DNA from: an uncultured Bdellovibrionales bacterium
GTDB lineage: Bacteria > Patescibacteriota > Minisyncoccia > Moranbacterales > UBA9337
Assembly: GCA_964605525.1 (NCBI GenBank)
Contig: CAZSCV010000005.1
Coordinates: 39,256 to 103,255, forward strand
Reading direction: 5' to 3'
DNA length: 64,000 nucleotides
The notes beneath the pieces are model-generated. The model had not been told where the DNA came from. It searched no databases and saw only the letters and a program-made list of their open reading frames with translations. Shown here one piece after another: positions 1,691 through 31,140 of the stretch. The position numbers and the translations under genes are program-made. Each line of letters opens with the position of its first letter. The first letter of the stretch is position 1.

Positions 1691-1703
1691 TAAGAAGGAA
1701 AGC

Positions 1704-5688: not shown

Positions 5689-5702
5689 ATTCAATAAGAA
5701 TA

Positions 5703-7039: not shown

Positions 7040-7049
7040 ATACAAAAAA

Positions 7050-7679: not shown

Positions 7680-7697
7680 TCCATTTTATTTTTTTAA

Positions 7698-10687: not shown

Positions 10688-10698
10688 ATAAAAAAAGT

Positions 10699-12891: not shown

Positions 12892-12899
12892 TTTAATTT

Positions 12900-13649
12900 T
12901 TAAGACCGAAATTTGTTTAGCTTGTCTATAATATTTAACAGAAAGATTAGGACGGAACTTTTTAAATATTGCTTGTGAATAAGATTATGCTCGTTGTTAG
13001 ATTTTCCTTTCGTGCTCTGTGAATCAGGATGAATAAAGAAATTACATATAGTTTTATTAAAAAATACCGGAAATACGTTGTTTTTTAAGAGCCGTAACCA
13101 CATCTCATAGTCCATTGAGTTCTTGTATTTTTCATTGAAGTATCCATATTTTTTGAATATTTTTTTCTGAATGAAAACGGATTGATGAGGAATATAATTA
13201 GTTGCTAGCAAAAGCCAGAACTTAGCTTTATGATAAATTTTTCTATGCGGGATTATTCTACTAGCTCCTCTTATCTCATTGATAAATAATGCTTTTCCAT
13301 ATATCCAATAAGGATTTTTGTTTATTAATATAAAGGCGTTGATTTCCTTTAATGTATCCGGACTAAATAAACTATCATCGGAATGCAAGTGAATAATATA
13401 TTTTCCCGACGATTTATTTATTCCAATATTCATAGCATTTCCGATTCCTCGCGGCTTGAATTGAAATAGTTTAACTTTTTCTGGAAATTCTTTTTGATAA
13501 CTTTTTATGATAGAGGTGGTTTTGTCTGATGAAAATCCATCAATGAATATGTGTTCAAAATTTTTGAATGATTGATTTTTTATGGAATCTATGTTTCTCC
13601 GGATATACTTTTCGCTGTTGTATGTGCAAGTAATTATCGAAAATTTCAT
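12900..13649 (-). CDS. glycosyltransferase family 2
   Basis: N-terminus FSIITCTYNSEKYI...FIDGFSSDKT. Confidence 0.8.
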   Translation of the reverse strand: MKFSIITCTYNSEKYIRRNIDSIKNQSFKNFEHIFIDGFSSDKTTSIIKSYQKEFPEKVKLFQFKPRGIGNAMNIGINKSSGKYIIHLHSDDSLFSPDTLKEINAFILINKNPYWIYGKALFINEIRGASRIIPHRKIYHKAKFWLLLATNYIPHQSVFIQKKIFKKYGYFNEKYKNSMDYEMWLRLLKNNVFPVFFNKTICNFFIHPDSQSTKGKSNNEHNLIHKQYLKSSVLIFLLNIIDKLNKFRS

Positions 13650-14770
13650 AATAAAGTGGATTTAATTATATTAGCTGCAGTTTTTGTTTTTTGGATAATT
13701 CCCCACGAATCATTTTTTAAGTGCAAATTATTTTCAAAAACATTTTTTATTGCCTTGGTGATTTCTTTTGAATTAGCAGATTTGATTATGTATCCATTTT
13801 TTCCATCTTCAATAAGATCGGCGCTCGCTCCAGCTTCTTTCGTTGCTATAACGGGTAGATCACAAGCCATAGCTTCATTTATTACCAAGCCCCAAACTTC
13901 CTCGTAAGATGGAAGTATCAGTAAATTGGAAATGGAATAATATTTGTAAAGATCGTCATATTGGATGAAATCAGTAAAAATTATATCTTTTAAATGCATT
14001 TTTTTTATAATTCGTTTCATCTTTTCTTTCTCTCTCCCTCTTCCTATGATTAACAAGGAAACGTCAGGGTCATAAGTATGATAGTCTTTAAAGCCCTCAA
14101 GGAGGTTATAAATTCCTTTTCTTTCAATTAGCTGTCCGTTAAATAATATTATTTTTGAAGTTTTTATTCCTAGTTTATTTGTTATCAATTTTTTTTCTGT
14201 TCGAGTAAGGTTTTTTGTCTTTTCTTTAAAGTAGTCTATGTCAATAGAATTGAAGATTATTTCAATGTTCTTAGGGTTAACTCCGAGCGAAATGATGTAA
14301 TCACGCGCTCTTGTTCCGTAGACTACAAATTTATCCGTATTTTTAAATAAATATTTCACAAGAGGAGAAAATATTGTTCTTCTCCAACTCGGTTCATATT
14401 TAGTACTTCCTGACCAAAGAATGAATTCTTTTTTGTTCTTGCGTGCCCACCAGTTTGCTGCGTAAGCAGCAAAATGATCCCAGCCGAAACATATTATTTT
14501 ATCTGGATTATTATGACTAAGCGCACTCAGTATGTTTGGGTTTATAAAGAAAGTAAAGAGATCTTTTTTTCCAATTCTGATGGCAAAATTTTTTAGAATT
14601 TCATAATCAAATCTGATGTTAAAATCTTTCCAATATCTATTTTTGTCACTTTTGCTCAGGAAAAAAACTTTAAGTGTGCTTTCGTTATTGTGATAATGTT
14701 TATTTAACTCATTGAATAAATGAATTCTTGCTGGGCTTATTATGTTATGTAATACGAGTATTTTCTTCAT
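13646..14770 (-). CDS. glycosyltransferase family 4 (GT-B)
   Basis: C-terminal EX7E-type region SYEEVWGLVINEAMACDLPVIAT. Confidence 0.7.
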   Translation of the reverse strand: MKKILVLHNIISPARIHLFNELNKHYHNNESTLKVFFLSKSDKNRYWKDFNIRFDYEILKNFAIRIGKKDLFTFFINPNILSALSHNNPDKIICFGWDHFAAYAANWWARKNKKEFILWSGSTKYEPSWRRTIFSPLVKYLFKNTDKFVVYGTRARDYIISLGVNPKNIEIIFNSIDIDYFKEKTKNLTRTEKKLITNKLGIKTSKIILFNGQLIERKGIYNLLEGFKDYHTYDPDVSLLIIGRGREKEKMKRIIKKMHLKDIIFTDFIQYDDLYKYYSISNLLILPSYEEVWGLVINEAMACDLPVIATKEAGASADLIEDGKNGYIIKSANSKEITKAIKNVFENNLHLKNDSWGIIQKTKTAANIIKSTLL

Positions 14771-14806
14771 TTTTTTGATGTAATTATGAAAAATGTTTAG
14801 AAGCGG

Positions 14807-15970
14807 TTATTTGTAGATATTTTCTAGCTTGGAACAAACTTTGTCTATGGAAAATTTAATCGCAATCATATTTTTTGAATTTATGGATAGTTTTTTCTTT
14901 AAATCGGAATCATTTAGGATAGTTAATATTTTATCTGAAAATTCAGTTTTATTTTTTAGTTCCAATTCAAAGCCTGCTTTATGTGTTTCAATTTCTGGAA
15001 CATTGCAGTTTTTTGAGATGATCTGGGGGATGCCAATGGCGGCGACCTCCAAAACTGTCATAGGTAGACCTTCGTTTCTGGATGTGAAAATAAAAATATC
15101 ACACGATTTTATCGTTTCGAGTTTTTCTTTTCCGGTTAGTATTCCAGTAAAAACAACGTTGTTTTGCAAATCTAGTTCAATTGCCATTTTTTTTAATTTT
15201 TCTTTTTCTCCTTCATCGGGACCGATAATAAGATAGGTGAATTTTGTTTTGTATTTTAGGGAAGATAGAATTTCTATTGATATATCCACTCCTTTGATAT
15301 ATTGCAATCTTCCGATATATGCGATGATTTTATTTTCTTTCGGAAAATTGTATTTTTTACTTAGATTGATTTTTTTGATGTTTTCAAATTCTTCAAGGTG
15401 GAGACCATTGGGAATGATAATAGTTTTATTCTCAAATTTTTTGTTTATTGAAATTATTTCACTTTTTTCATTTTCCGTCAGGGCAATAATGTTCTTTGAG
15501 TTTTTTAGTATGGTTGTAAAAATATCTAAAAAAATCTTTTTTATGAATTTAAATTTGGCCTCTTGTCGAACCAAGGAAAGAGTGCCGTGAGGTTGAATAA
15601 TGAAGGGAATATTATGTTTTTTGCAAAAATGGGCAGTAATGATGTTTTGTAAAGTAAAAAAATCATGGCAATGAACTACATCAAAATTTCGTATATTATT
15701 TTTAGCCCAAAAATAAAATCCAATTGGTAAGTACCCGTTGCAATTTTTGGCTAGCCAATTACTGATGTTTCTGAAGCGGATAATTTTTATTCCGTTAACA
15801 TCTTCTTGAAGTTTTAAGATTCTATTTTTTTTATCAAGTGTGTCTGTTGTGACCACGGTAACTTTGTTTTTGCGGGCGGTTAATTCTTTGGAAATATCGA
15901 AACAAACTTTAACTGGTCCGCCGAAGCCGTAGGCTGGAATAAAATATGGAATAACTTGAAGTATTTTCAT
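14807..15970 (-). CDS. glycosyltransferase family 4 (GT-B)
   Basis: RNEGLPMTVLEVAAIGIPQI motif. Confidence 0.7.
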   Translation of the reverse strand: MKILQVIPYFIPAYGFGGPVKVCFDISKELTARKNKVTVVTTDTLDKKNRILKLQEDVNGIKIIRFRNISNWLAKNCNGYLPIGFYFWAKNNIRNFDVVHCHDFFTLQNIITAHFCKKHNIPFIIQPHGTLSLVRQEAKFKFIKKIFLDIFTTILKNSKNIIALTENEKSEIISINKKFENKTIIIPNGLHLEEFENIKKINLSKKYNFPKENKIIAYIGRLQYIKGVDISIEILSSLKYKTKFTYLIIGPDEGEKEKLKKMAIELDLQNNVVFTGILTGKEKLETIKSCDIFIFTSRNEGLPMTVLEVAAIGIPQIISKNCNVPEIETHKAGFELELKNKTEFSDKILTILNDSDLKKKLSINSKNMIAIKFSIDKVCSKLENIYK

Positions 15971-17466
15971 TTGGTTTTTATAAACGAGTATTCTTCTTTG
16001 GAAGATGAAATGGCAAAAATTTTATAGTTTGCTTTGTTGAGTTTTTGTATCGCATCTCTTGTTTTTTGGGCAGATATAGAAGAAAAGCGATGATGAAATT
16101 CAATTAATATCTGCTTGATATCAAAGTTATTTTCAATTATGTCATCAATAATTTCATATTCAGAGCCCTCGATATCCATTTTTAGAATGTCAATTTTATT
16201 GTGACCCAATTCTTTCATTATTGTTGTCAGATTTTTTACCTTAACTATTATTGGACTGTTTGCATGGTCTTTGCGTACAATACTGTGTGAAATGTGATTT
16301 GGGTTTTTCGGGGGAAACAGCTCGACAAATCCATTTTGTGCGGATAATCCATAATCAAAATATTGAAAATTATTCGGAAGATGTTGTTTCTTCAACCAAC
16401 TTATTGATTTTGGAGTAGGGTCAAAGGCAAAAACCTTACATCCATATTTTGAAATAATGTCTAAATCAAATGAAATATCCTCTCCTATTCCAAACGAATA
16501 AATAATGCTTTCGCTGTGTATATTTTTAGGGGAAATAGTCCAACCTCCATATTTTTTCGATCCAATAAAATCACCGTGAATGTTTTTTTGAACGAAAAAA
16601 AACACTTCTTTACCTAAAGCAACTTTTGCTAGGTATCTGATTTTCCAAAGAAGTAGTTTTAATTTTTCCACAAAGAAATATTTATTTTTTTTTATCTTAC
16701 TTAAGGCTTCATAGATCGTAGTTATCTTGTAATAATTGAATTTATGCAAGAATAATGATGCTGGATATTTCCCCCCGTATTTTTTAGCTAGCCTCAGTTC
16801 ATCTTGAAATTGTTTTTTGTTGACACTGCCACTTTTGCTGTTTGGATAATATCTGAAATTCGCCAGATAATTATCAATAACTCCGGCTGGATATTTTTGA
16901 CCGATTCTAAGCCAAAATTCATAATCCATACACAGATGCTCATTTTCATCAAAAAAACCCCTCTTGGCGTGAATTTCGCGTTTCCAGAACGTTGCGGGTT
17001 GGGAGATGAAATTTTCTGTCAGGAGTTTTGCATAACTGTATTTTCTAAGAAGAAAGTTTTTGTACCATGTTATGGGCTTCCTTATTTCTTCATCATTCTT
17101 GTTGATAATTTTGCATTTGCCATAGACCCAAAATTTTTCCGGATTTTTCTTGAAAAAATCGGCGACTTTTCGGAGCGCGCTTGGCTTGTAGGTATCATCG
17201 GAATTGAGATAGGCGACAATGTCTCCGGTAGCCATTTTGAGTCCCTTGTTGATGGCATCAGATTGTCCATTGTCTTTTTCGGATTTCCAAATGATGTGGT
17301 CGGAATATTTTTTCAAAATTTCAATTGTTCCATCGGTTGATCCTCCGTCCATAATGATATATTCAAGATTCGGATAATCTTGCTTGAGCACGCTCAAAAT
17401 AGTCCGTTCAATAAATTCGGCTTGATTGTATGATGGGGTAATAATTGAAATTTTAGGATTGTTCAT
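15967..17466 (-). CDS. bifunctional glycosyltransferase family 2 / FkbM-family methyltransferase fusion
   Basis: N-terminal [14 protein letters not shown]...[10 protein letters not shown] (GT2) and C-terminal [11 protein letters not shown]...[16 protein letters not shown] (FkbM). Confidence 0.7.
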
Positions 17467-18388
17467 AATTTTTCAGAAACCATTGGTAGGTATCTTTGAT
17501 TCCTTGATTGAGTTCAATTTTGTGCTTCCAATTGAGACTGTGCAATTTGGAAACATCCAGAAGTTTTCTTGGCGTGCCATCCGGTTTCGATGTGTCATTT
17601 TTTATTTCTCCTTCAAATCCGACTATTCGCTTGACTATTTCGGCTAATTCTCGAATGGAAATATCCTCCCCGGTTCCAATGTTTACGATTTCATTTTCGT
17701 TGTAATTTTCCATTAAAAAAACGCAAGCGTCAGCCAAATCATCAACGTGCAAAAATTCTCTTTTCGGGGAGCCCGTTCCCCAAATCAATACTTCTTTTTG
17801 ATTATTGATTTTCGCTTCGTGAAATTTTCGGAGTAGGGCAGGGAGAACATGAGATGAATTCAAATCAAAATTATCATTCGGTCCGTACAGGTTTGTTGGC
17901 ATTACGGAAATATATTTTGTGCCATATTGTTTGTTATATGACTGGCACATTTTAATTCCGGAGATTTTGGCAACAGCGTAGGCTTCATTTGTTCTTTCCA
18001 GCGGTCCGGTCAAAAGATATTCTTCTTTGATTGGTTGGGGACATTCGCGCGGATAAATGCAAGAGCTTCCGAGAAAAAGAAGTTTTTTGACTTTGTTTAG
18101 ATATGCATTGTGAATAATATTGTTTTGTATTTGCAGATTTTGAAAAATGAAATCGGCGGGATAGGTATCGTTTTCCAATATTCCGCCAACTCTCGCAGCT
18201 GCCAGAAAAACATATTCCGGTTTTTCTGTTTCAAAGAATTTTTTTACTTCCTGCCAGTCGAGCAGATCTAATTCTTTGTGTGTTTTCAAAACGAGATTGT
18301 TAAATCCGTTTGATTTGAGATTGCGAATAATCGCTGAACCGACAAGTCCATTATGCCCCGCGATATATATTTTAGAATTCTTTTCCAT
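17453..18388 (-). CDS. fcl: GDP-L-fucose synthase (GDP-4-keto-6-deoxymannose 3,5-epimerase/4-reductase)
   Basis: N-terminus [19 protein letters not shown]. Adjacent to gmd. Confidence 0.85.
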
Positions 18389-18398
18389 ATGCTTTGTC

Positions 18399-19436
18399 TT
18401 ATGATTCTTTTTTCATATCCGCTTTCATCATTATTTTTACCAACTCTTTGAATTTGGTTTTCGGCTTCCAATTCAATTTCTTTGCCGCCTTTGTCGGATC
18501 TCCCAGAAGTAGATCGACTTCGGTAGGGCGGTAATATCTTGGATCGATTCTGATCATTATTTTTTTTGTATTTTCATCAATTCCAACTTCTTTTTCTTTT
18601 TTTCCTTTCCATTTCAATTTTATTTTGGCGACTTTGCAAGCCTCTTCAATAAATTCTCGCACGCTGTGAGTTTCGCCGGTTGCCAAAACAAAATCATCCG
18701 GAGTTTTTTGTTGGAGCATCAGCCACATCCCTTCCACATAATCTTTTGCATAGCCCCAGTCTCGCTTGGAGTCGATATTTCCCAAATAGAGGCAGTCATC
18801 TTTTCCGGCTAAAATTCTGGCAAGTCCGCGAGTGATTTTTCTAGTCACAAAAGTTTCTCCGCGACGCGGTGATTCGTGATTGAAAAGAATTCCATTGCAC
18901 GCATATAGATCATAACTTTCTCGATAATTTACGGTTATCCAATAAGAATATAGTTTGGCGACTCCATAGGGTGAGCGGGGATAAAATGGAGTAGTTTCTT
19001 TTTGCGGGGTTTCTTGAACAAGTCCGAAAAGTTCACTGGTAGATGCTTGATAGAATTTGGTTTTTATTCCGGATTCTTTGATTGCATCTAAAATTCTCAA
19101 CGTTCCAATACCGGTGACATCGGCGGTATATTTTGGCACATCAAAGCTGACTTTGACATGGCTTTGAGCGGCAAGGTTGTATATCTCATCCGGCTTTATT
19201 TTTTCAATTATGCGGCTAATATTGCTTCCGTCCGACAAATCTCCATAGTGCAAAAACAAACGCACATTGTTCAGGTGCGGATCTTTGTACAAATGATTTA
19301 TTCTTCCTGTGTTGAATGAGCTTGATCGGCGAATTATTCCGTGAACTTCATATCCTTTTTCTAATAATAATTCGGCTAGGTATGATCCGTCTTGTCCCGT
19401 TATTCCCGTTATTAATGCTTTTTTCTTTTTTTTCAT
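18399..19436 (-). CDS. gmd: GDP-mannose 4,6-dehydratase
   Basis: [33 protein letters not shown]. Confidence 0.9.
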
Positions 19437-19469
19437 TATCGCGCAGCGTATTAGATTTTTTACGATTGT

Positions 19470-19817
19470 TTATTGTTTGATCTCAGATTCATTGATAGCT
19501 TTTTTTCTTACGATTTCAGTCATCTGTTGTTCCAGTCTTTCGATAGCGGAGAGCAGTTTGAATATCATTAGGAATATTAAAAGAAATCCGGCAAGTATTA
19601 CGGCGTTTATATTTCCTTCAAGTCCAATTATGCGAGCCATTATATTAGTAAAAGAAGGAAAGAGCGCAATCAGAATCATTCCACCCCAGACAAAAAAACG
19701 AATGGATAGCTTATAAAAATTCTGACCCGTTTTACCTTTGACAAAATTTACAATTCCGGAATAAATCATTGATGAAGAAACTATGATCACGATAATTTGA
19801 TATAGATGTAGAGACAT
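19470..19817 (-). CDS. DUF2304-family small membrane protein (commonly paired with GT2 enzymes)
   Basis: 115 aa with 3 TM segments and a C-terminal charged tail. Family resemblance only. Confidence 0.45.
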   Translation of the reverse strand: MSLHLYQIIVIIVSSSMIYSGIVNFVKGKTGQNFYKLSIRFFVWGGMILIALFPSFTNIMARIIGLEGNINAVILAGFLLIFLMIFKLLSAIERLEQQMTEIVRKKAINESEIKQ

Positions 19818-19910
19818 AATATTTGTAATTTATTTTTTCTAATGTTGATTGTAGCAATTTTTTTTAAATTGAACAACTATATGTCGTAACTTGTTAATTT
19901 AAAAAATAAG

Positions 19911-19950
19911 ATACCCAGCTGTTTTAAGGCTGGGTTTTTTGTAAGTTACT
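19911..19950. terminator. bidirectional rho-independent terminator
   Basis: Hairpin cccagctgttttaaggctggg flanked by an A-run and a T-run. It lies between two minus-strand genes, at the low-GC / higher-GC boundary. Confidence 0.7.
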
Positions 19951-19975
19951 TGTTTTTTGAATGGCAACTAGTGCA

Positions 19976-20335
19976 TTATTCCTTGGTTGCTCGAATAGCA
20001 ACCGGATATGCATTAGTTCCAGGTGTACATCCGGAAACATAAAAATATACCGTAAGTCCTTCTGCTTGTGCAACTTCCATGGCGATGGACATGCGGTCAC
20101 CATTAGTGCTCACTGTTCCATCCAGATTTATTAATTGAATGTCGATGTATGTTGCTGATCCGCAGCCGTCGGGATTGGTTAGGACTGATAATGGTTCCAC
20201 ACGAAAAATATCGTCACTTACGTAATAAGTTTGACCGATTAAAGTCGGTCCGATCCAGCCAGCACCGAAAGTCGTATTTGCTAAAAGTAAAAATGGCAAC
20301 ACAACAAGTAGAAACAGGGGGGTTGTTTTTTTCAT
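19976..20335 (-). CDS. small secreted protein (signal peptide, 2 Cys), function unknown
   Basis: N-terminus MKKTTPLFLLVVLPFLLLANTTFG. 4-nt overlap with the upstream FN3 gene. Higher GC than the genome background. Confidence 0.5.
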   Translation of the reverse strand: MKKTTPLFLLVVLPFLLLANTTFGAGWIGPTLIGQTYYVSDDIFRVEPLSVLTNPDGCGSATYIDIQLINLDGTVSTNGDRMSIAMEVAQAEGLTVYFYVSGCTPGTNAYPVAIRATKE

Positions 20336-20970
20336 TGGATACTCCTTTTCTTTTTTAATAGGATTATTCTTGTTGCGGATCCTTTTACAATCCGCGATGT
20401 TCCATCAATCATTACAACCGTAAACATTACGGACTTTCCGTAATATCCGGTTGCATCATATGGAGATACTGCGAAGAAGTATCTTCCGTCGGCGAGGCTC
20501 AAAGTCGAGAGGTCGAGCGACGTTGTCGCTCCGACATCAATTTCGTTGGTGGTGCCTCCTTTGACGGTGTCATAGAATACTGAGTATCCTGCGACGTCAC
20601 CAGCCCCCGCTGTCCAACTCAGGATTGTTCCCGTGGTGATGATGGGAGTGGAGGGACTTTTGAGACCGAAATTGATGTAATACGGGACAGCGTGAGCGTC
20701 AGTCGCTGCATCTCCCGTTCCGAATGTAAAAGTGTTAACACCTTCCGTGAGCGCAGAGGTTTTGAATTCCCCGCTACAAACTCCGGAAGTATCGGTGAAT
20801 GTGAAAGTATATATGAGTACTTGTTCATGATATACCCTTACGGTATCGTCGACTATATTACTGCAGTCGACAGATGTTCGAATCGTTGCTTCTTCGGCGA
20901 TTACTGTTCCAGTCCAAAAAAACAACAAGAAAAACCATAAAAATTGAAAAATCAAAAATCGTCTCTTCAT
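20332..20970 (-). CDS. secreted protein with a fibronectin type III-like domain
   Basis: Signal peptide, then an FN3-like signature (W..G..v.GY.vfyd....ttsLdLstLsladGrYfFaVspyDatG). Strong SD (gggagg) upstream. Confidence 0.5.
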   Translation of the reverse strand: MKRRFLIFQFLWFFLLFFWTGTVIAEEATIRTSVDCSNIVDDTVRVYHEQVLIYTFTFTDTSGVCSGEFKTSALTEGVNTFTFGTGDAATDAHAVPYYINFGLKSPSTPIITTGTILSWTAGAGDVAGYSVFYDTVKGGTTNEIDVGATTSLDLSTLSLADGRYFFAVSPYDATGYYGKSVMFTVVMIDGTSRIVKGSATRIILLKKKRSIQ

Positions 20971-21222
20971 TTCTCCTCCCTCGCCTCCCTTATTTCAGGA
21001 GACTTTTTATTTTATTGTCAAAACAACTATTTCTTATCCTTATATCACTATTTTGCCGTATTTTGGAAAAAAAGCAAGTTTTTTTGATGTTGAGATTGAC
21101 AAATGAGGTTGAGATAGGGGATAATGGGAAATCATAGAAATATGGTTGTTGGTTGCAGTTGTTTGACAAATGAATAATGGAATAATGATTGATGAATATA
21201 AAATTATATAGGAGGAAGGAAG

Positions 21223-22378
21223 ATGAAAGATATGAAGATAATCGGATTGGAAGATGTTTTGAAAAAGGCGAAAAAATATGCCGCTACGGATGTTCCGATT
21301 CTCATCACTGGAGAGCCGGGAGTGGGGAAGGAAGTTGTGGCGGAATTTATTCACAGGAATAGTTTGCGTGCGGAAAGAGTTTTCAATCCGCTTAACTGTG
21401 GGGCCGCTAATGGCCTCGTGGACAGCGAACTTTTCGGACACAGAAAGGGCTCTTTTACGGATGCTCGCTTTGATCGCCCGGGACGTTTGATGGCATCTGC
21501 TGGCGGGACGGTTTTTTTGGACGAGATTGGCGATATGCCGACTTCCGTTCAAGCAAAAATCTTGCGGTTTTTGAACGGCAGAGGCGAGATTCAGCAAATC
21601 GGGGCGGACCGTCCCGTATATGTTGAAACGCGCATAATTTGCGCAACAAATCAGTTGCTCCGAAAAATGGTTTCAGAAAAAACGTTTCGGAGAGATTTGT
21701 ATAGTCGGATTTCCGGGTTTGAAATTCACATTCCGTCGCTTCGCGAGCGCAGGGATGAGATTCCAACTTTTCGTGGAACATTTTTTTGAGTATTTCACTG
21801 AGAAATATCAAAAAAAATGGTGTCGCGATTTCATTATCCCTCGTCTTACAGAGCTGGCGATGGAAATGTCATGGCCGGGGAATGTCAGGGAATTGATGGG
21901 TTGGATCGAGAAGTTTGTTGTTCTTGAAGATCTTGAGACAGCCTGTTGTTCTAGTAAAAAAGAAATAAAGATCATCAGGAGTGTTCCTGATGATGCAATG
22001 GGAAAATGCATTATAATTCCGGAGAAAGAGTTTCCCCTTTTTCCCGAGGAGGTTGGTTTTGAAAAAATTCCGGTTGAAGGTGGTTTTGTGGATGGGGAAT
22101 GCTTTGCACCTAATTGTGCAAGCGGGGATTTTCAGCCGTTGTCATTGAGTTTTAATCCGTTTGTTCTCGATAATTTCCGTTTTTTGGAAATGGATGAACC
22201 TCAAAAAAAAGAAGCTTTGAAAAAAGCTCTTGAAAAAAATAATGGGGTTGTAACGGCGGCTGGAAGGGATTTGGGCTTGCCCGAATCTTCGGCTAGCTAT
22301 TTCGTAAAAAAATTGGGGCTTATTGAGTATGCAAGGGAACTCAAAAAAGCCGCAAAAAAATCGGAAAAATCCGCTTGA
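21223..22378 (+). pseudogene. sigma-54-dependent transcriptional activator (AAA+ bEBP, PspF-like, no sensor domain), disrupted by a +1 frameshift near 21768
   Basis: Walker A GEPGVGKE, GAFTGA-loop variant GSFTDA and RRDLYSRI in frame 1. WPGNVREL and a C-terminal Fis-type HTH in frame 2 (ORF 21719..22378). Removing one A in ccaactttt restores EIPLFVEHFFEYF. Confidence 0.75.
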
Positions 22379-22385: not shown

Positions 22386-22421
22386 CAGGATCGGCACAAA
22401 TGCGCCGACCCTGTTTTTTTG
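22386..22421 (+). terminator. rho-independent terminator
   Basis: Hairpin caggatcggcacaaatgcgccgaccctg followed by T7. Confidence 0.7.
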
Positions 22422-22553: not shown

Positions 22554-23126
22554 ATGGATAATTTTCTGACAATTATATATGGTTCAAAACAAACGGTTTT
22601 TACCAGCAAAGAAATCGCTATTTTAATCGGGGAAAAAAATGCCGATAAACTCAAGTCAAAGTTGTCCTATTATGTGAAAACCGGAAAATTGATCCGGCTT
22701 CGTCGTGGAATTTTCTCAAAAAAAGATGATTATGACAAAAATGAACTGGCTGTCAGAATTTTTACTCCGGCATATGTGAGTTTTGAAACGGTTTTAGCAA
22801 AAGAAGGCGTGATATTTCAATATTATGAAACAATTTTTGCAGCCAGCTACCTTTCGCGGAATCTGAAATTCAGGGAAAATAAATTTACGTTTCGAAAACT
22901 CAAAAGTGAGATATTGATTAATCAGCAAGGATTAATAAATCGAGGGACGTATTTTGAGGCATCAAAAGAGCGAGCTTTTTTGGATATGTTGTATTTGTTT
23001 GGAAGCTGTCATTTTGATAATCTTCGAAATATCAATTGGAATACTTGTTTTGATATTGTCGGTATATATAAAAACAAAATGCTGGAAAAAAGACTTAAAA
23101 ATTATTTTGAAAAATATGCTAAATAA
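22554..23126 (+). CDS. AbiEi-like antitoxin/regulator (type IV TA, putative)
   Basis: 190 aa, directly upstream of and overlapping the AbiEii-like gene. Its own TTGACA-N16-TAAACT promoter lies at ~22492-22520. GC is at genome background, unlike the surrounding island. Confidence 0.45.
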   Translation: MDNFLTIIYGSKQTVFTSKEIAILIGEKNADKLKSKLSYYVKTGKLIRLRRGIFSKKDDYDKNELAVRIFTPAYVSFETVLAKEGVIFQYYETIFAASYLSRNLKFRENKFTFRKLKSEILINQQGLINRGTYFEASKERAFLDMLYLFGSCHFDNLRNINWNTCFDIVGIYKNKMLEKRLKNYFEKYAK

Positions 23127-23808
23127 AGAAAAACACAGACTGGTTATGGCGCAAATATTAAAAGATATTTATTCTGATATCTCTATTGCATCTCTGTTGG
23201 GTTTTAAGGGTGGTACGGCAGCATATTCATTTTATGAATTGCCGAGATTTTCTGTTGATTTGGATTTTGATTTATTGGATGACTCTGAATCAAACAGGAA
23301 TTTGATATTCGAAAAAATAAAAAATATTATTTCAAAATACGGTGAAATCAAGGACAAACAACAAAAATTTGCGACTATATTTTTTGCTCTTTCATATGAA
23401 TCAGGTGAGCATCAAATAAAGGTTGAAATAAATATGAGAAAAACCGGTGCCAGTTATGAAATGAAAAATTATTTCGGCATACCGGTTTTGGCAAGTACCA
23501 AAGAGTCTATGTTTTCGGCAAAACTAGTGGCACTTTTGAATCGCAAGGAATTTGCGGCGCGGGATCTTTTTGATGTGTATTATTTTCTCAAAAACAATTG
23601 GGGGACTGATAATAATGTTTTTGAATCATATAATATTTCGTCTGAAAAAGAATATATCAAAAAGTGCGTTTCTTTTGTTGAAAACGTTCCGGAGAATACT
23701 TTATTGAAAAATCTCGGAGAGCTTATTGATGAAAAGCAAAAAGAATTTGTCAAAACAAAAATAAAAGACGAGGTAATTTTTATGTTAAAGGCTCGTTGGA
23801 ATATTTAA
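23116..23808 (+). CDS. AbiEii/AbiGii-family nucleotidyltransferase toxin (DUF1814)
   Basis: LLGFKGGTAAYSFYELPRFSVDLDFDLL motif. Start is the in-frame ATG at 23116; an alternative is 23146. Confidence 0.7.
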   Translation: MLNKEKHRLVMAQILKDIYSDISIASLLGFKGGTAAYSFYELPRFSVDLDFDLLDDSESNRNLIFEKIKNIISKYGEIKDKQQKFATIFFALSYESGEHQIKVEINMRKTGASYEMKNYFGIPVLASTKESMFSAKLVALLNRKEFAARDLFDVYYFLKNNWGTDNNVFESYNISSEKEYIKKCVSFVENVPENTLLKNLGELIDEKQKEFVKTKIKDEVIFMLKARWNI

Positions 23809-24494
23809 TGCACCAGTTTCCAGAGCATTTTCCAGACGGTTTTGATGCCGTTGGCAAGCGATTGCTTTTGAGCTTTTCCCATTGAGTATTCTGTATAGCG
23901 GACTTGAATGGGGATTTCTTTGTATTTAAGTTTGTATTTGTATATTTCCCGGATTACTTCGCTGTCATATTCATATCGGTCGCCAAGAGTGTTGATGACT
24001 TCGGCGGCGCGACGGGAATAGGCGCGCAATCCCGATTGACTGTCGGTAACCCAAAGACCATAGAGATACCAGGTGATGGCGTTGCCGATTTTGTTGTGGA
24101 TGATTTTGTACCAAGGCATTCCTTCAGGATTCATCAGACGCGAACCCAAAACCACGTCGCAATTTCCTGAGGCGATAGGGGAGATGAGGCGCGCAATGTC
24201 TTTGGGGTCATGCTGTCCGTCGGCATCCATTGTGATGATAATATCAGCGCCCAAAAGTTTGGCGGCTTCAATACCGGTTTTGGCGGCCGCTCCTTTTCCG
24301 CGGTTGATTTTGTGCCGGAGCGCCGTGGCGCCGGGAATTTCCTTGGATTTGGAAAAAGTGCCGTCCGCGCTTCCGTCGTCGACGATAATGATTTTTTCAT
24401 ATCCGGCATCGCGGATTTCTTTGGCAACATCAGCAATAACCTTTTCTTCGTTGTAAGCGGGAATAACGATATAAATTTTTTCGTTGTTTTTCAT
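23805..24494 (-). CDS. glycosyltransferase family 2 (polyprenyl-phosphate sugar synthase, DPM1-like)
   Basis: IYIVIPAYNEEKVI...IIVDDGSADGT. Noticeably GC-rich. Confidence 0.8.
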   Translation of the reverse strand: MKNNEKIYIVIPAYNEEKVIADVAKEIRDAGYEKIIIVDDGSADGTFSKSKEIPGATALRHKINRGKGAAAKTGIEAAKLLGADIIITMDADGQHDPKDIARLISPIASGNCDVVLGSRLMNPEGMPWYKIIHNKIGNAITWYLYGLWVTDSQSGLRAYSRRAAEVINTLGDRYEYDSEVIREIYKYKLKYKEIPIQVRYTEYSMGKAQKQSLANGIKTVWKMLWKLVH

Positions 24495-24517
24495 ATTTGT
24501 TATTATATGTCATTTTT

Positions 24518-24561
24518 GAAAAATAAAAAACCCCGCCAAGCGCTCGTGGCGCATGGCGGGG
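24518..24561 (-). terminator. rho-independent terminator for the lipoprotein gene
   Basis: Hairpin ccccgccaagcgctcgtggcgcatggcgggg followed on the minus strand by a T-run. Confidence 0.65.
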
Positions 24562-24568
24562 GCAAAGG

Positions 24569-25042
24569 TTATTCTAAATAGACTACTTCTATCTCATTTG
24601 AATGATCACTTATGTATACCAAGCGGTGTTCAAATGGATAATACGCTATTACTTTGTTAGTGAAGTAGTATTTTTTGATTCCCGGAACTGTTTGGATTTT
24701 TATTTTTATCCATGGAGACCTCACACCGGAAACCTCCCTCTTGGAAACTATAAAAATCCGATCATAATTTCCGCTTTGGGTGCCGTAGGATATTATATAT
24801 CCCAGTATCGTTTCTCCGTATCCCTCTTCGGCATACGAGAAATTTTCAATAGACGTATCTATTAATATGTTATCAATAAATCGTTCTTTTCTTTTATTAT
24901 CATCCGGTGTATCCCATGCGAAAGTTAGCGAAACTTCTTTTTCTAAATTTCTTTCGACAACAAGATGTGACTGCGACGTGCAAGCTGCCAGTGGCAACAA
25001 TATCGACAACAAAAATAAAACAGATAAGAGATGTTTCTTCAT
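24569..25042 (-). CDS. lipoprotein, function unknown
   Basis: Signal peptide with lipobox LAAC. Confidence 0.5.
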   Translation of the reverse strand: MKKHLLSVLFLLSILLPLAACTSQSHLVVERNLEKEVSLTFAWDTPDDNKRKERFIDNILIDTSIENFSYAEEGYGETILGYIISYGTQSGNYDRIFIVSKREVSGVRSPWIKIKIQTVPGIKKYYFTNKVIAYYPFEHRLVYISDHSNEIEVVYLE

Positions 25043-25054
25043 TATAATACCTCA

Positions 25055-25996
25055 TTATTTTTCAGTTTTGGGTTTGAAATACGGATTTGGAAATCCGTAT
25101 TTAATTTCCGTTGACGGACCTGAGATCTCACCGCTTGAGAGGTAGAGAATGCAGGCGATATAAAAAACGATATCGCGCTGGTTTTTCCATTGGTGTACTG
25201 TTGTAGTTATGACAAGTGACTTTGCGGGATTTTCCGGTGTGGCAGTCAGACCCACATCGATTACGTGGTCATACTTCCGGCTCTCGGTGCCGTACAAGAT
25301 TTTGTAGCCGGCAAGCTTCTCCTCTTCCAGATTTTTATCCCACACCAATTTTATTTCTGGGGTCCGGATTATGACATTTCCCTTCTTGTCTTTTTCCAAT
25401 GACACGAATTTCGCGTCCTTTTCCTTTTCGGTTTTATTTTTATACCGGATAAAGAAATATGGACGTCGGATATCCGAGTCGTCGCCATCGGAAATTCCGT
25501 CATTGTCGGAATCAGGGTCGATGATGTTTGGAATGTTGTCTTCATCGAAGTCGATTTTGTTTTCGACTCGATCAATTCCCCAAGTTGCCAATTCTTCGCC
25601 GTCAGGAATCCCATCTTCATCGGAATCCGCTTTTTTTGGATCGGTTCCGATTTTTTGTTCGAAATCATCCGCCAACCCGTCCTTGTCGGAGTCGATTTGA
25701 TTTTCTCCGATTTGAAAAAGGATGATCTCCTCGGACGGAGGCATTTCCCTCCTGTCTTTGACAAATGAAACAGAAATGAAATTCGGCGCATCCAAATAGA
25801 GCGGAAGAGTGGAAACACTGACCTCGGTTAAATTTTCAACCGTGATTTTTTCCGAATAATCACGGGAATGCTTCCCGATTCGGATGATGTACTCCTTTAC
25901 GGTTATATCCGGCAATTTCGGCCAGATAATTTCGTATCCTAATGCAACGTCGGAACACGAAAAAACAAAGCAAAAAATCAGGAATACTTTTTTCAT
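25055..25996 (-). CDS. secreted calcium-binding protein with thrombospondin type-3-like DxDxDG repeats
   Basis: Signal peptide plus repeated DSDKDGLADD, DSDEDGIPDGEE, DEDNIPNIIDPDSDNDGISDGDDSD motifs. Confidence 0.55.
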   Translation of the reverse strand: MKKVFLIFCFVFSCSDVALGYEIIWPKLPDITVKEYIIRIGKHSRDYSEKITVENLTEVSVSTLPLYLDAPNFISVSFVKDRREMPPSEEIILFQIGENQIDSDKDGLADDFEQKIGTDPKKADSDEDGIPDGEELATWGIDRVENKIDFDEDNIPNIIDPDSDNDGISDGDDSDIRRPYFFIRYKNKTEKEKDAKFVSLEKDKKGNVIIRTPEIKLVWDKNLEEEKLAGYKILYGTESRKYDHVIDVGLTATPENPAKSLVITTTVHQWKNQRDIVFYIACILYLSSGEISGPSTEIKYGFPNPYFKPKTEK

Positions 25997-26090
25997 GGCA
26001 AAACCTCTCGGGTTTAATATGTTGAATTGTTAAGAAGCTGTTTTTTGTTTTCATAAAAGTCTAGCATATTTTCGCATAAAAGCAATACTG

Positions 26091-26123
26091 CTACAAAATC
26101 TCGCGATCGTGAGTGTTTTGTAG
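26091..26123. repeat. 33-bp imperfect palindrome ctacaaaatctcgcgatcgtgagtgttttgtag; second copy in inverted orientation at 30858..30890
   Basis: A 22-nt core tacaaaatctcgcgatcgtgag is identical between copies. It sits between a terminator and the next promoter. Confidence 0.7.
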
Positions 26124-26139
26124 TGTGGGAATGTGGGAA

Positions 26140-26179
26140 ATAAAAAAGGACTCATGCAAGGCAATGCTTGCATGAGTCC
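26140..26179 (-). terminator. strong rho-independent terminator for the 646-aa protein gene
   Basis: Perfect 13-bp stem ggactcatgcaag/cttgcatgagtcc followed on the minus strand by TTTTTTATTT. Confidence 0.8.
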
Positions 26180-26203
26180 TGTTGTGTCGGGTTTCCGACG
26201 TTA

Positions 26204-28144
26204 CTATTTCAAACAAGATAACAGTGAATGATCGGAAGAGTGATCGAATTCAAATTCGCTTACTCCTGCCATTCTGACAGTGCGATTTGTTCCAACCCCG
26301 TGGACTACTGAGATGATGGGATTGTCATATCCCTTCTCTTGCCACGAAAATTGGTGGAGCTTGTCCGTTTCGAATACATCACCATTTTTAGTTTTTGTAT
26401 CCAGAGACTCGGTTTCCCCTGTTGCCTCGACAAATACGAACGGTACTCCGTCGATGAGCATATGGTTTGAAAATGGATCTGTGATCACCCTTTCCGCCGG
26501 AATATTTTCCGCCTGCACTAACGTGACGGCATGACCTCGTCCGAAAAAGTTGAGGGTTCCGATGGCAACTGTGCTGGTGTCGCCGAGGACGGTGTTCTCG
26601 GCGGAAAAATAAAGCGTTGCCATGGCAATGGCATGTCCCTCGCAGTCTTCACCGCGATTGAGCATTGCCATTGGAAGTGTCATTGGAATTTCCTCGGGAC
26701 TGTTATTTCCGGACTTACTTCCATCAAACTTCTTGTCGGAAATATAGTCCAGATCTCGGGCCGAAAAATCGGAAATTTTTTGAAGTGCCTCTGGTTTAGT
26801 TGAGGCATCTCCGATGATTTCCTTGGCAAGTCTTTCAGTGGAGGGCGTTTTGACGATGTATGCCGCAAGATAGCTGTCGCCAAAATTACTATTTCCGTTG
26901 CCGGGATAGAGCGGTAAGACTTTCGCCCGGCGGTTTTCCTCGACTTGCTGTTGCGCAACAAGAATGTCGCGATATGTTATTGACTTGTCGCGTTTGGCGC
27001 CGAGTACAATTGGATCATCTTGACCCATTTTCGCCAAATAGGAAAACGGGATGATGATTGATTGTGTCGGGTCGAGTGACCCAAAAAAGAGCAGTTCATT
27101 GCGGGAATTCCGCAATGGAACTGCCACTTCGTCGTACCCGTCAACTTCGTGACCGTTTTTGTCGGTTTTTTTCCAGGCGACAACGGTCATATCGACAGGA
27201 AGGTCTGCTGAATACACAGGACGTGCATTTAGACCGCTTCCTGTAATCTCGATTTTTTTCGGATCAAGATATGCTCCATAAGCGGCAGCATATTGATTCG
27301 AAATCAGTCGCGTTGTTCGCTCCTGATCCCACTCGCCAGTCTCCCAATCGCAAAGATTAGTGAGGATATAGTAGGCAACTAGGAGAGATTCTTCCGGTTC
27401 TAGATTGGGCGTTCCTAATTCAACACTGGTTTTGTCCCGGCGCCCCTTGCCATTGGGGTGCAAAAATATATAGATGTCGCCCGAAAGGTCGATCCAGCGT
27501 GTTTCGCCGTCGGCGAATTGCCGATTGAAACCAGTAAGACCTTGCATTCCATCTGTTTCGAAAAACGGATTGGACATATAATAATCCGAGCCTTGAACAA
27601 GCGCGCCATTACTGCCGGAGAAATCTCCATATGGTACTGAAGAGAATGCCATCGAAAAATTTTCCCTTGCTACGATTTCCGTGTTCATTTTTCCCTCTCT
27701 TGCGATTCGAGAGGGGAGAACCCAGTCCATCGCTGTGGTTCGCGAAAGGTATTTCCTTGCCGCGTTGTACGCGGCAAAACTTACAGGATCATTCAGCTCC
27801 CGATTTTTTCCGTCGCCTTCGACAATAGAAATCGTGTCGCCGAGAGCGAACCTTCCATTGACGAAGTCAAGCCATGAAATCGTGATGGACTGGATGTGAA
27901 GATCTTTTTCGATGCTGGAATATGGGATGTGATACACCCCTCGATAGGGGTGATGGATTTTTGCTGCATTGGATACGGCATATTCGACCGCGAACCCTCC
28001 GCCGACAAAAAACGCAATTGTGAAAAATATCCCCAGCCATTTGAAAACAGATTTTGCAATTTGTTTTCTGGGTTGGAAATTACCGCTTGTTGTTCCGGAA
28101 ACATGCTTTGCTTCCGGCCAATTCAGTTTTTCCAGATAACTCAT
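26204..28144 (-). CDS. N-terminally membrane-anchored extracellular protein (646 aa) with a C-terminal transglutaminase-like Cys-His-Asp core
   Basis: TM helix WLGIFFTIAFFVGGGFAV near the N-terminus. Candidate C-terminal triad GEDCEGHAIAMATLYF ... GHAVTLV ...(18 aa)... DP. GC-rich. Confidence 0.45.
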   Translation of the reverse strand: MSYLEKLNWPEAKHVSGTTSGNFQPRKQIAKSVFKWLGIFFTIAFFVGGGFAVEYAVSNAAKIHHPYRGVYHIPYSSIEKDLHIQSITISWLDFVNGRFALGDTISIVEGDGKNRELNDPVSFAAYNAARKYLSRTTAMDWVLPSRIAREGKMNTEIVARENFSMAFSSVPYGDFSGSNGALVQGSDYYMSNPFFETDGMQGLTGFNRQFADGETRWIDLSGDIYIFLHPNGKGRRDKTSVELGTPNLEPEESLLVAYYILTNLCDWETGEWDQERTTRLISNQYAAAYGAYLDPKKIEITGSGLNARPVYSADLPVDMTVVAWKKTDKNGHEVDGYDEVAVPLRNSRNELLFFGSLDPTQSIIIPFSYLAKMGQDDPIVLGAKRDKSITYRDILVAQQQVEENRRAKVLPLYPGNGNSNFGDSYLAAYIVKTPSTERLAKEIIGDASTKPEALQKISDFSARDLDYISDKKFDGSKSGNNSPEEIPMTLPMAMLNRGEDCEGHAIAMATLYFSAENTVLGDTSTVAIGTLNFFGRGHAVTLVQAENIPAERVITDPFSNHMLIDGVPFVFVEATGETESLDTKTKNGDVFETDKLHQFSWQEKGYDNPIISVVHGVGTNRTVRMAGVSEFEFDHSSDHSLLSCLK

Positions 28145-28164
28145 TTTTTCCTCCTCCTTTTTTG

Positions 28165-28533
28165 TCAGGAAATTCCGCCGGATAATTCTCTGATTCTCCA
28201 GAAAACTCCCGGCATAGAAACTGCGTTCGTATATTCCTCAAGAAAATAGCTATATACCTTTCTTTCGGAGTTGAAGCGAACCTCAACGGTTCGGTGTTTT
28301 TTCTTTGCAAGTATTACGATACTTTTCAGTTCATAAGAACTCATATCACGATCATTGCATCTTGCGATGCAATCTTCTCCGATGCGGTACATATAGACAT
28401 CTACGTACGGAATCGGATCACTGCTTTCAAATTCTGTTGCATTATTTCCACCCTCTGATCGAACGGTGAATATCAGGAATACGCAAAATATCATCAGAAA
28501 ATCCACAAAACGGCGCAATAATGCTTCTCTCAT
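28165..28533 (-). CDS. ExbD/TolR-like single-pass membrane protein (putative)
   Basis: N-terminal TM helix with a conserved Asp (RRFVDFLMIFCVFLIF), then a ~90-aa domain patterned like the ExbD periplasmic domain. ATGA overlap with the upstream MotA/ExbB-like gene. Confidence 0.4.
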   Translation of the reverse strand: MREALLRRFVDFLMIFCVFLIFTVRSEGGNNATEFESSDPIPYVDVYMYRIGEDCIARCNDRDMSSYELKSIVILAKKKHRTVEVRFNSERKVYSYFLEEYTNAVSMPGVFWRIRELSGGIS

Positions 28534-29228
28534 AATGTTTTCTCCTTATTGAGTCGCAGAATCACGATAAAAGTTTTGAGCAGGATTTTTCTTTCCTCCT
28601 CCACTACGGTATTAAGGGTTAAAATTACCAATCCTCCGTACAATGCTAGAATAGTAGTATCCATTGCCAGATCGGCTCCAGCGAGCATTGAAGCAACCGA
28701 CGAACTTTTCTCATGGCATGCCAACTTGAACCCGACGAGCGTGCCAATTAAACCCAGTGCGGCAAGAATATAATCCAAATATTTCACCGCATTTGTGGAG
28801 CGAAGAAAAACTTCCTCGAAATAATTATCCAACCCATTCTTCACTTCATCCGACCAATTTCTTTGGTTGGCCAGAGAAAGCTTTTGAAAATGCTGAACAA
28901 GAATTGAATCGAAAAATTTCTTAGATAATGGAAGTTCTCCGCGTTGCAGGCTGGTGTCATTTGTGTATGCAATCATCCTCTCAATCAATATCGCTTCACT
29001 TTTTGTTGAAAAAAGTGTTGCGATTGATGAAATTATTCCAATCGCTATGATTGCCGAAATGGCAATCATTAGCGGATTGGAAAAATCCATTTTTTGAACA
29101 ATCGGCATTTTTGCCAGAAAAAACGTCAACAAAAATACCGCCATCATCGTTTGTAAATATTTCCAGATAAAAACGGTTGAATCTTTGATGGTTCTTGTTG
29201 TTTTTGTGATTTCCAAAGTTTTTTCCAT
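28530..29228 (-). CDS. MotA/TolQ/ExbB proton-channel family protein
   Basis: C-terminal TM pair with family signature LAALGLIGTLVGFKLA ... AMDTTILALYGGLV. Confidence 0.55.
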   Translation of the reverse strand: MEKTLEITKTTRTIKDSTVFIWKYLQTMMAVFLLTFFLAKMPIVQKMDFSNPLMIAISAIIAIGIISSIATLFSTKSEAILIERMIAYTNDTSLQRGELPLSKKFFDSILVQHFQKLSLANQRNWSDEVKNGLDNYFEEVFLRSTNAVKYLDYILAALGLIGTLVGFKLACHEKSSSVASMLAGADLAMDTTILALYGGLVILTLNTVVEEERKILLKTFIVILRLNKEKTL

Positions 29229-29393
29229 TTGCCTCTTCCTCCTCCATAGATTTGCGGGGATATCCCGCTAGTTCGATATTCAATTGTCAAATTACTACAA
29301 AACTTCGAAAATTCCGATTATTCGGACTTTTCTTGTATTTGCTTTAATTATCCATTTCTTGTGTTTTAAAGTCAAGCTTTTTTACGTTTTTAT

Positions 29394-29422
29394 TGACAAA
29401 ACCTTGGAAGTTTCTTATTCTT
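29394..29422 (+). promoter_or_regulatory. sigma-70-like promoter TTGACA-N17-TATTCT upstream of ugd
   Basis: Sequence match. A strong SD (ggagaggag) lies 6 nt before the ATG. Confidence 0.5.
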
Positions 29423-29525
29423 GCAGAAAGTTGTTTGAAAAAATGGTTATGCTAAAATAAAAGCATAAAAAATAAAAAATCCCAAATTCGGGAAAAACTT
29501 CCCGAGATAGGGAGAGGAGAAAAGA

Positions 29526-30839: not shown

Positions 30840-30857
30840 GGTCTGCGCCAAAATATA

Positions 30858-30890
30858 CTACATTTTTCTCACGATCGCGAGATTTTGTAG
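30858..30890. repeat. second copy (inverted) of the 33-bp palindromic element
   Basis: ctacatttttctcacgatcgcgagattttgtag; see 26091..26123. Confidence 0.7.
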
Positions 30891-30910
30891 TATATATTTG
30901 ATGAGTGTAA

Positions 30911-30958
30911 AAATAGCAAAGCTCCGATAATCATGATTGATTGCCGGAGCTTTTTTTA
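30911..30958. terminator. bidirectional rho-independent terminator
   Basis: Hairpin agctccgataatcatgattgattgccggagct followed by T7; an A-run lies upstream. Confidence 0.7.
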
Positions 30959-30978
30959 TGGAGCGGGAGAAGTAGCTT

Positions 30979-31116
30979 TTATTTAAAGACTACGAAAATT
31001 ACCACAGGACCCTTGCCGCCAATACGCATTGGCTCTCCGCACGCCTCAATGGACTCAGGGGCGGTGTTCTCAAACTCTTCAATCGTGATCGGTACTGCCT
31101 TTTTTTCAGAAGACAT
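30979..31116 (-). CDS. small ORF (45 aa, MSSEKKAVPITIEEFENTAPESIEACGEPMRIGGKGPVVIFVVFK), hypothetical
   Basis: Not in the >=60-aa ORF track. Perfect SD aaaggaggtgactt 7 nt upstream of the ATG. GC-rich like the island. The plus-strand ORF 30941..31162 over the same DNA lacks an SD. Confidence 0.35.
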   Translation of the reverse strand: MSSEKKAVPITIEEFENTAPESIEACGEPMRIGGKGPVVIFVVFK

Positions 31117-31140
31117 AAGTCACCTCCTTTCGGTGTTTTT

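Follow-up and report, generated by a model that had tools for sequence, protein, structure and literature searches.

PspF, the phage-shock activator of E. coli, and HrpR/HrpS are bacterial enhancer-binding proteins (bEBPs) that have the AAA+ domain at the N-terminus and a Fis-type helix-turn-helix (HTH) at the C-terminus, lack a cis regulatory domain, and are encoded by genes lying divergent from a neighbouring operon. A gene of the same orientation and, with a weakly matched HTH, of much the same build is found in a 64-kb stretch of DNA (the window) from the chromosome of a Moranbacteria-like member of the Parcubacteria, a small-genome organism of the candidate phyla radiation (CPR). The nearest homologues of its product, and of the 212-aa protein encoded by the first gene of the adjacent operon, come from Candidatus Moranbacteria GW2011_GWE2_35_2-, and the SecA protein encoded in the window shares a cluster of >90% identity with that of 'Parcubacteria group bacterium Athens0714_25'. 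The activator gene is interrupted by a frameshift. The explanation that we favour, and consider probable without being secure, is that a sensor-less bEBP specific to this clade has here become a pseudogene, and only recently, next to two genes for surface or secreted proteins that form a transcription unit of their own.

The activator gene, its lesion and its orthologues

The bEBP gene is read on the plus strand in two overlapping parts. Its 5' part (21223 to 21789, frame 0) encodes a 188-aa product with Walker A, the GSFTDA loop (21448-21465), Walker B and the arginine-finger region, and meets a TGA past the frameshift; its 3' part (21767 to 22378, frame +1) contributes the AAA+ lid with the WPGNVREL motif, a variable linker of about 110 aa with several cysteines, and a putative Fis-type HTH (approximately 22208-22375). 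Removal of one base anywhere in 21755-21788 joins the open reading frames (ORFs) of 188 and 219 aa into one protein of 384 aa. The repaired protein matches PF00158 (Sigma54_activat) with 181.9 bits (cut-off 20.2; E=1e-53) over profile positions 8-168 of 168 and AAA_lid_14 with 48.5 bits, and its GEPGVGK, FLDEIGDM, RxDLYxR and LRERxxEI motifs are all intact and are invariant in an alignment with canonical bEBPs. The PF00158 match begins at residue 9 and the protein therefore has no N-terminal sensor domain. The C-terminus gives a weak match to HTH_8 (PF02954; 19 bits, E=0.0011, below the 22-bit cut-off), and this region aligns with the HTH of canonical bEBPs. An earlier, sequence-only reading of this DNA had described a sensor-less bEBP with exactly these parts (AAA+ core, Walker A, GSFTDA, WPGNVREL and a C-terminal HTH), and the domain matches agree with it, the HTH match being the weak one. 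No NCBIfam equivalog cut-off is reached, that for PspF included. Beyond the gene, a terminator-like hairpin was detected by a terminator scan at 22391 to 22408 on the plus strand. A role in defence was considered and rejected: PADLOC matches the protein only through the generic AAA+ part of its RtcR and PspF models, and there is no CARF domain.

DNA alignment with the intact orthologues in contigs L081 and L082 places the lesion at 21765/21766 on the plus strand, where the window reads ATTCCAACTTTTC and the orthologues read ATCCC-ACTTTTC, a difference of one inserted A. The sequence-only reading was right that a single extra A, which it put at about 21768, splits the activator; the site is an AA dinucleotide and not a long homopolymer such as it supposed at 21760-21775, and a run of seven T residues (T7) lies 15 nt downstream. 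Repair of the frame restores RERRDEIPLFVEHFF exactly as in the orthologues. The same insertion occurs in contigs from three other sample accessions, L086 (ERZ27284377), L087 (ERZ27284381) and L088 (SRR8863431), making four assemblies overall that came from different sample accessions and different assemblers, and neither a repaired nor an intact allele was found in a collection of 15 billion proteins. The frameshift is therefore real, and it appears to be fixed in the sampled population. Between the window and L094, which has the closest intact orthologue, the ratio of nonsynonymous to synonymous substitution rates (dN/dS) is 0.26 overall, 0.10 in the N-terminal half and 0.41 in the C-terminal half; for the intact pair L081 and L094 the corresponding values are 0.24, 0.09 and 0.38. 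A ratio no higher than that between intact orthologues, with no trace of relaxed selection, suggests that the lesion is probably recent and that the gene is probably a young pseudogene.

Intact orthologues in related genomes are 60-81% identical; by global alignment the protein identities are 81% (L094-L096 and L098; 421 aa, annotated 'ZraR', 12 contigs), 76% (L081) and 65% (L082), and a distant member of the family, some 45-50% identical, is present in L083-L085. In the L094, L081 and L082 groups the bEBP gene occupies the same position as in the window. On one flank lies a minus-strand cluster encoding proteins of 232, 122, 646, 313 (with TSP3 repeats) and 157 aa, followed by a glycosyltransferase family 2 (GT2) gene, and on the other lie the gene for the FN3-like protein described below and then DUF2304, gmd, fcl and glycosyltransferase genes. 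Across these orthologues dN/dS is 0.19-0.26 overall and approximately 0.1 in the AAA+ half, demonstrating purifying selection. With intact orthologues in the same slot between the same flanking clusters, the bEBP gene is therefore ancestral to the locus and not a passenger of a recent island. The sequence-only reading had called it a decaying passenger of an imported island; the decay is borne out by the frameshift in other samples and by the 168-kb contig L097, which is otherwise collinear, has no bEBP gene and carries a 369-aa homologue of the FN3-like protein directly after GT2. The island is contradicted by the syntenic intact orthologues and the selection acting on them. Frameshifted once and deleted once, the bEBP appears to be dispensable.

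The orthologues were recovered by searches of differing reach. The search of genome contigs was dominated by generic bEBPs matched through the FLDEIGDM pattern, the best among the matches listed being 38-48% identical, and close bEBP relatives may be missing from those listed. A metagenome scan with a family-specific C-terminal alignment returned one contig, a 788-kb contig of Moranbacteria, and the homologue search missed the protein cluster of the 81%-identical Moranbacteria orthologue, which is represented by a 167-aa fragment.

In L083-L085 the distant family member is a sensor-less bEBP of 349 aa with a GSFTNA loop. Its gene is flanked, on the same strand, by one for a secreted FN3/PKD-like protein of 397 aa and one for a secreted protein of 449 aa. 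The association of the bEBP family with secreted beta-sandwich proteins is thus not confined to the Moranbacteria locus.

The divergent secreted pair and the promoter region

Divergent from the bEBP gene, two minus-strand genes encode a 212-aa protein (20332 to 20970) and a 119-aa protein (19976 to 20335). Their ORFs overlap by 4 nt (ATGA), both have good Shine-Dalgarno sequences, and both products begin with a K/R-rich and then hydrophobic, signal-peptide-like segment, so that export, to the cell surface or into the medium, seems likely for both from their sequences. The unit is closed by an intrinsic terminator on the minus strand at 19913 to 19935, consisting of a hairpin and a run of T residues; the terminator scan reports this hairpin on the plus strand and the minus-strand terminator was read from the reverse complement. 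In L093, L094 and L097, folding reveals a hairpin and T-tract of different sequence at the equivalent place after the small gene. Because a terminator follows the small gene in all of the loci, we take the two genes to form a transcription unit of their own. The ORFs, ribosome-binding sites and conserved homologues substantiate the sequence-only description of an overlapping minus-strand pair, from 20970 to 19976, encoding signal-peptide proteins.

Homologues of the 212-aa protein, including those from Ca. Moranbacteria, are 57-75% identical to it and range from 206 to at least 475 aa at the same locus. It has no Pfam (fn3 included) or NCBIfam match at the sequence level, and no catalytic or anchoring domain was recognised in it. 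An AlphaFold2 model built from a 5-sequence alignment (mean pLDDT 81.5) consists of an N-terminal helix and two all-beta domains. When this model was compared with the PDB using Foldseek there were 19 matches at E<=1e-3, the listed top ones being mostly tandem FN3 or FN3-type receptor domains, and the best were tandem FN3 fragments with a probability of about 1.0. The TM-scores against tandem FN3 are low, since the two domains are oriented differently with respect to each other. The predicted structure is thus that of two tandem FN3-like beta-sandwich domains; the FN3-like signature noticed earlier was correct as to fold and incomplete as to number, only a single domain having been proposed. 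Comparison of the N-terminal domain with the divergent 475-aa neighbour in L081 gives an hhalign probability of 39%, so homology between them is only suggestive. At the C-terminus, a short tail (GTSRIVKGS...ILLKKKR, window 20332-20400) of a hydrophobic stretch followed by basic residues is kept in four of five homologues. It might be a cell-surface retention or sorting signal, although its length falls short of a standard transmembrane anchor.

The 119-aa protein belongs to a very small orphan family. It has exactly two cysteines, in the NPDxC and SGC motifs of a pattern that runs AGW...NPDxC...SGC...YP, and both are invariant in a 10-sequence family alignment, in keeping with its earlier description as a small 2-Cys protein; W27, N54-P55-D56, C58 and S101-G102-C103 are the invariant positions. 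One homologue, 76% identical, was found among 5.8e9 proteins, the product of the syntenic 121-aa gene of L094 is 31% identical, and an exhaustive HMMER search of 1.84 billion representatives yielded only 11 members at E<1e-3, most of them 108-122 aa long with a signal peptide. The family profile found no relative in Pfam or the PDB, and the AlphaFold2 model, based on a 2-sequence alignment, is unusable (pLDDT 48).

Promoter candidates lie in the region between the divergent genes. A 40-bp block at 21039 to 21078 on the minus strand (CTTGCTTTTTTTCCAAAATACGGCAAAATAGTGATATAAG), which has no -24/-12 element, is near-identical in the window, L081, L093, L094 and the bEBP-less L097, and its position and conservation suggest that it is the promoter of the secreted pair. 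Because the same block survives in L097, expression of the pair would be independent of the activator. The sequence-only reading had assigned the pair an extended -10, sigma-70-like promoter; the corresponding TGATATAAG is present in the window, but its TG is not conserved in relatives and a consensus scan did not call it. On the plus strand, TTGACA-N18-GATAAT at 21096 to 21125 is the best promoter-like site in the region, with 11 of 12 matches, and is kept in L082 and L094; it is the near-consensus, sigma-70-type promoter of the bEBP gene.

As the sequence-only reading had stated for the roughly 250-bp divergent region, no sigma-54 promoter is to be found there. A GG-N10-GC element is absent from 20971-21222 of the window, from the divergent regions of L081, L094 and L082, and from upstream of the other neighbouring genes. 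When the window and L081-L098 were scanned for TGGCAC-N5-TTGCW (up to 2 mismatches, with GG and GC fixed), no site preceded the start of a gene adjacent to the bEBP. The window has 28 copies of TGG-N9-TGC, where 20.4 would be expected. The best site in the scan, the sigma-54-like TGGCAGTTCCATTGCG at 27111-27126 on the minus strand, lies deep within the 646-aa ORF and was treated as a chance occurrence.

Another promoter candidate, TGGATTCCCGCCTGC upstream of the bEBP gene in L082 and L094, was set aside as part of a GC-rich palindrome that the window lacks. This palindrome, ATTCCCGC...GCGGGAAT, is flanked by three to four direct GGAATGACAA repeats and lies in the 5' region of the bEBP gene in L082 (150-215) and L094 (approximately 9760-9830). 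The palindrome and its repeats are absent from the window and from L081, and may represent either a small repeat element that was inserted there or binding sites for a regulator.

Sigma-54 and the alternative explanations

The literature on sigma-54 or rpoN in CPR, Patescibacteria, Parcubacteria and Moranbacteria gave a single useful source, in which a sigma-54 family is recorded in 5 CPR against 792 non-CPR genomes and a bEBP family in 30 CPR against 891 non-CPR genomes (Meheust 2019, PMC6744442, Supplementary Data 1). Pfam scans of the larger ORFs detected no Sigma54_AID, CBD or DBD domain, and thus no rpoN, in the 64-kb window; beyond its ends the reachable sequence consists of short contigs, in which there was no rpoN. 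The L1 loop is GSFTDA in the window and GSFT[D/N]A in the orthologues, with F3 and T4 intact. The sequence-only reading had listed it as a variant of GAFTGA, and it is not a sign of degeneration: two validated sigma-54 activators have these substitutions, LevR having A2->S and FlgR of Campylobacter G5->D, and it is F or T that is lost in homologues that act with sigma-70 or reside in genomes without sigma-54 (Francke 2011, PMC3162934). Among the top bEBP matches we tallied 19 GSFTDA and 21 GAFTDA loops. To judge from the loop, the family looks competent to contact sigma-54.

The locus as a whole is, in our estimation, rather likely to comprise two independent, back-to-back transcription units within a conserved cell-surface locus. 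One would be the secreted FN3-like and 2-Cys pair, with its own terminator and an upstream conserved promoter block that has no -24/-12 element and would need neither sigma-54 nor, apparently, the activator. The other would be the divergent gene for the sensor-less bEBP, with its own TTGACA-N18-GATAAT promoter, ancestral to the locus in the clade and inactivated in this population by one inserted A to leave a young pseudogene. On this explanation the activator would be an accessory regulator that these bacteria can do without, and its loss would be under way in parts of the clade. Several points weigh against it. The evidence on rpoN covers the 64-kb window, and the lineage may or may not carry the gene. 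The promoter of the pair is assigned by conservation, the consensus scan having called no sigma-70 promoter on the minus strand at its block. The frameshifted assemblies may share one study site, in which case 'fixed' applies to that population. The 3' half of the bEBP gene aligns to its end with the intact orthologues, with no further stops or other lesions, and the T7 run that ends in TGA, a potential slip site, follows the insertion by 15 nt, so that low-level production of full-length bEBP is conceivable, if speculative. Finally, strong purifying selection and a sigma-54-competent loop in the orthologues indicate that the protein does something in the relatives.

Two alternatives concern the lesion itself. 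That the frameshift is an error of sequencing or assembly in an intact gene might be thought of for any single-base indel when all of the data are metagenomic assemblies; its recurrence in four assemblies of different origin, at an AA dinucleotide instead of a long homopolymer, and the missing intact allele largely refute this idea and leave it very little probability. A partly functional bEBP is somewhat less improbable, and still quite unlikely. The T7 run at 21781 to 21787 (plus strand) ends in the frame-0 TGA (TTT TTT TGA, codons 21781-21789) and would allow perfect re-pairing of tRNA-Phe in the +1 frame, so that a +1 ribosomal slip, or transcriptional slippage with loss of one U, would restore the frame, giving ...IPTFRGTFFEYF..., at the cost of four changed residues; this is speculative. 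Alternatively, the products of 188 and 207 aa might assemble as a split AAA+ protein. The overlap of the frames by 35 nt and a 3' half that has no other lesion and a dN/dS like that of intact pairs are compatible with residual function, but the T7 run is an ancestral Phe-Phe codon run, present in the intact L081 and L082 orthologues, and so did not arise as a recoding site; nothing like a stimulatory Shine-Dalgarno element is apparent, and the four altered residues would lie in a lid helix. As for the split protein, we know of no precedent among bEBPs for a division between the AAA+ alpha/beta subdomain and the lid.

The remaining alternatives concern the function of the family; the first of them bears on the relatives and is compatible with a pseudogene in the window. 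It is possible, although we would not call it probable, that the clade has a working sigma-54 system, with rpoN elsewhere in the genome and the bEBP acting on a distant -24/-12 promoter, and that this strain has lost a real circuit. The loop combines two substitutions that are each known from validated activators and is common among ordinary NtrC-type bEBPs, the AAA+ half has a dN/dS of approximately 0.1, 5 CPR genomes do have sigma-54, and the locus fits the tendency of sigma-54 regulons to be tied to cell-exterior functions such as exopolysaccharide and lipopolysaccharide (Francke 2011, PMC3162934); against this stand the rarity of sigma-54 in the CPR (5 genomes, compared with 30 that have bEBPs), the lack of a -24/-12 element beside the bEBP in any locus examined and the lack of rpoN within the window. 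The converse proposal, that the family acts without sigma-54, is less likely again. Here the HTH would bind the divergent region, which is rich in TTGACAA/TTGTCAA, and modulate sigma-70-type promoters in the manner of TyrR, DhaR and HupR, tuning expression of the variable surface-protein gene. It draws on the near-absence of sigma-54 from CPR genomes, on the repeated TTGACAA/TGACAA motifs, and on the constant location of the bEBP beside secreted FN3/PKD-type genes, the 45%-identical member in L083-L085 included. However, known sigma-70-dependent homologues have a defective GAFTGA, and F and T are intact here; the TGACAA motifs overlap -35 boxes and are only partly conserved; and the promoter block of the pair is unchanged where the bEBP is missing. 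We regard it as doubtful, in particular, that purifying selection maintains a clade of sensor-less bEBPs in sigma-54-less Moranbacteria-like CPR through a sigma-54-independent mechanism that uses an intact GAFTGA-type loop. Such a bEBP might remodel the sigma-70 holoenzyme or another partner in order to control a hypervariable surface-protein and glycan locus, and were this so the frameshift described here and the deletion in a relative would be natural knock-outs of the circuit.

Neighbouring genes and comparison with known systems

Elsewhere the window contains core genes (SecA, SecDF, FtsW, MurG, MurC, MurB, CysS and TrmD) and a large low-GC region for glycan synthesis. The GC content is 28-35% in the glycosyltransferase region, 41-47% in the surface-protein cluster and approximately 38-40% in the rest. 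The compositionally odd part (window 1-20000 compared with 24000-32000) is the low-GC glycan cluster and not the bEBP region.

The truly mobile piece is an AbiE cassette downstream of the bEBP. This type IV toxin-antitoxin (abortive-infection) cassette, at 22554 to 23808 on the plus strand, has an AbiEi antitoxin gene and after it an AbiEii nucleotidyltransferase gene, both identified by PADLOC (AbiEi 2.4e-61, AbiEii 7.5e-66) and by Pfam (AbiEi_4 and AbiEii, PF08843, 1.9e-18). It fills a slot of variable content that separates the bEBP gene from the convergent gene for GT2. The slot holds AbiE in the window, a 296-aa ORF and AbiE in L081 (2906-5220) and Fic in L094 (7203-8231), and is empty in L082; it is a hot spot for toxin-type cassettes. 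A second such group lies on the plus strand at the far end of the glycan region (window 552-4575), with Fic (552-1589), a DUF4143 protein (2002-2850), a 218-aa ORF and a second AbiEii (3745-4575). The five-gene cluster that flanks the bEBP, at 24569-29228 on the minus strand of the window (232, 122, 646, 313 and 157 aa), is conserved in the same order in L082, L094 and L097. Apart from bacterial TSP3 repeats in the 313-aa product, none of it matches Pfam, NCBIfam or PADLOC models; inspection by eye suggests an FN3-like segment with a YYF..AY motif at the C-terminus of the 313-aa and the 157-aa secreted proteins. Further away, a SecD-like protein (54240-55991, plus strand) is an unusual fusion in which a PPIC-type peptidyl-prolyl isomerase (Rotamase, residues 151-236) is inserted between the N-terminal P1 segment of SecD and the P1 head.

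The locus shows that at least one lineage of CPR bEBPs is a stable, syntenic and selected part of Moranbacteria genomes and does not represent contamination. If these genomes truly have no rpoN, the family would be a test case for an AAA+ activator that looks competent for sigma-54 in the absence of its sigma factor, and the variants with a frameshift or a deletion would be its natural controls; with rpoN present, the locus is one of the few sigma-54 circuits in the CPR, lost from a single population. In the annotation of the window, the activator is to be recorded as a pseudogene of recent origin and the two secreted proteins as a unit independent of it. The case is a modest example of gene decay and the bEBP belongs to an already known kind of protein.

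Set beside PspF, the bEBP is not an equivalog: it scores 195.1 bits against a TIGR02974 cut-off of 443.55 and 169.4 bits against 529 for PRK11608. Unlike PspF and HrpR/HrpS it has no PspA-family or HrpV-like partner gene nearby, according to domain scans of the window; in place of a psp operon its neighbours are the FN3-like and 2-Cys secreted proteins, DUF2304, gmd/fcl, AbiE and GT2. It differs from them also in its variable, cysteine-containing linker of about 110 aa, in a neighbouring operon without -24/-12, in its CPR host and in its frameshift. The 212-aa protein resembles bacterial secreted tandem FN3/Ig-like proteins in having a signal peptide and two beta-sandwich domains; it is unlike typical ones in lacking a Pfam fn3 match and in the widely varying length of its homologues at the locus. 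FlgR of Campylobacter and Helicobacter and LevR of the Bacilli have GAFTDA or GSFTGA loops and so share G5->D and A2->S individually with the GSFTDA of the bEBP, but they are built differently, FlgR with a REC domain and LevR with PRD and EIIA domains; outside the AAA+ core there is little identity, and their hosts have rpoN. TyrR, DhaR, HupR and VpsR, which act with sigma-70, offer a functional precedent should the lineage prove to be without sigma-54. In these proteins GAFTGA has been lost or damaged, whereas the bEBP family keeps F, T and the flanking ESELFGH.KG. The production of polysaccharide, which VpsR regulates, is a function of the cell surface, as is that of the bEBP locus.

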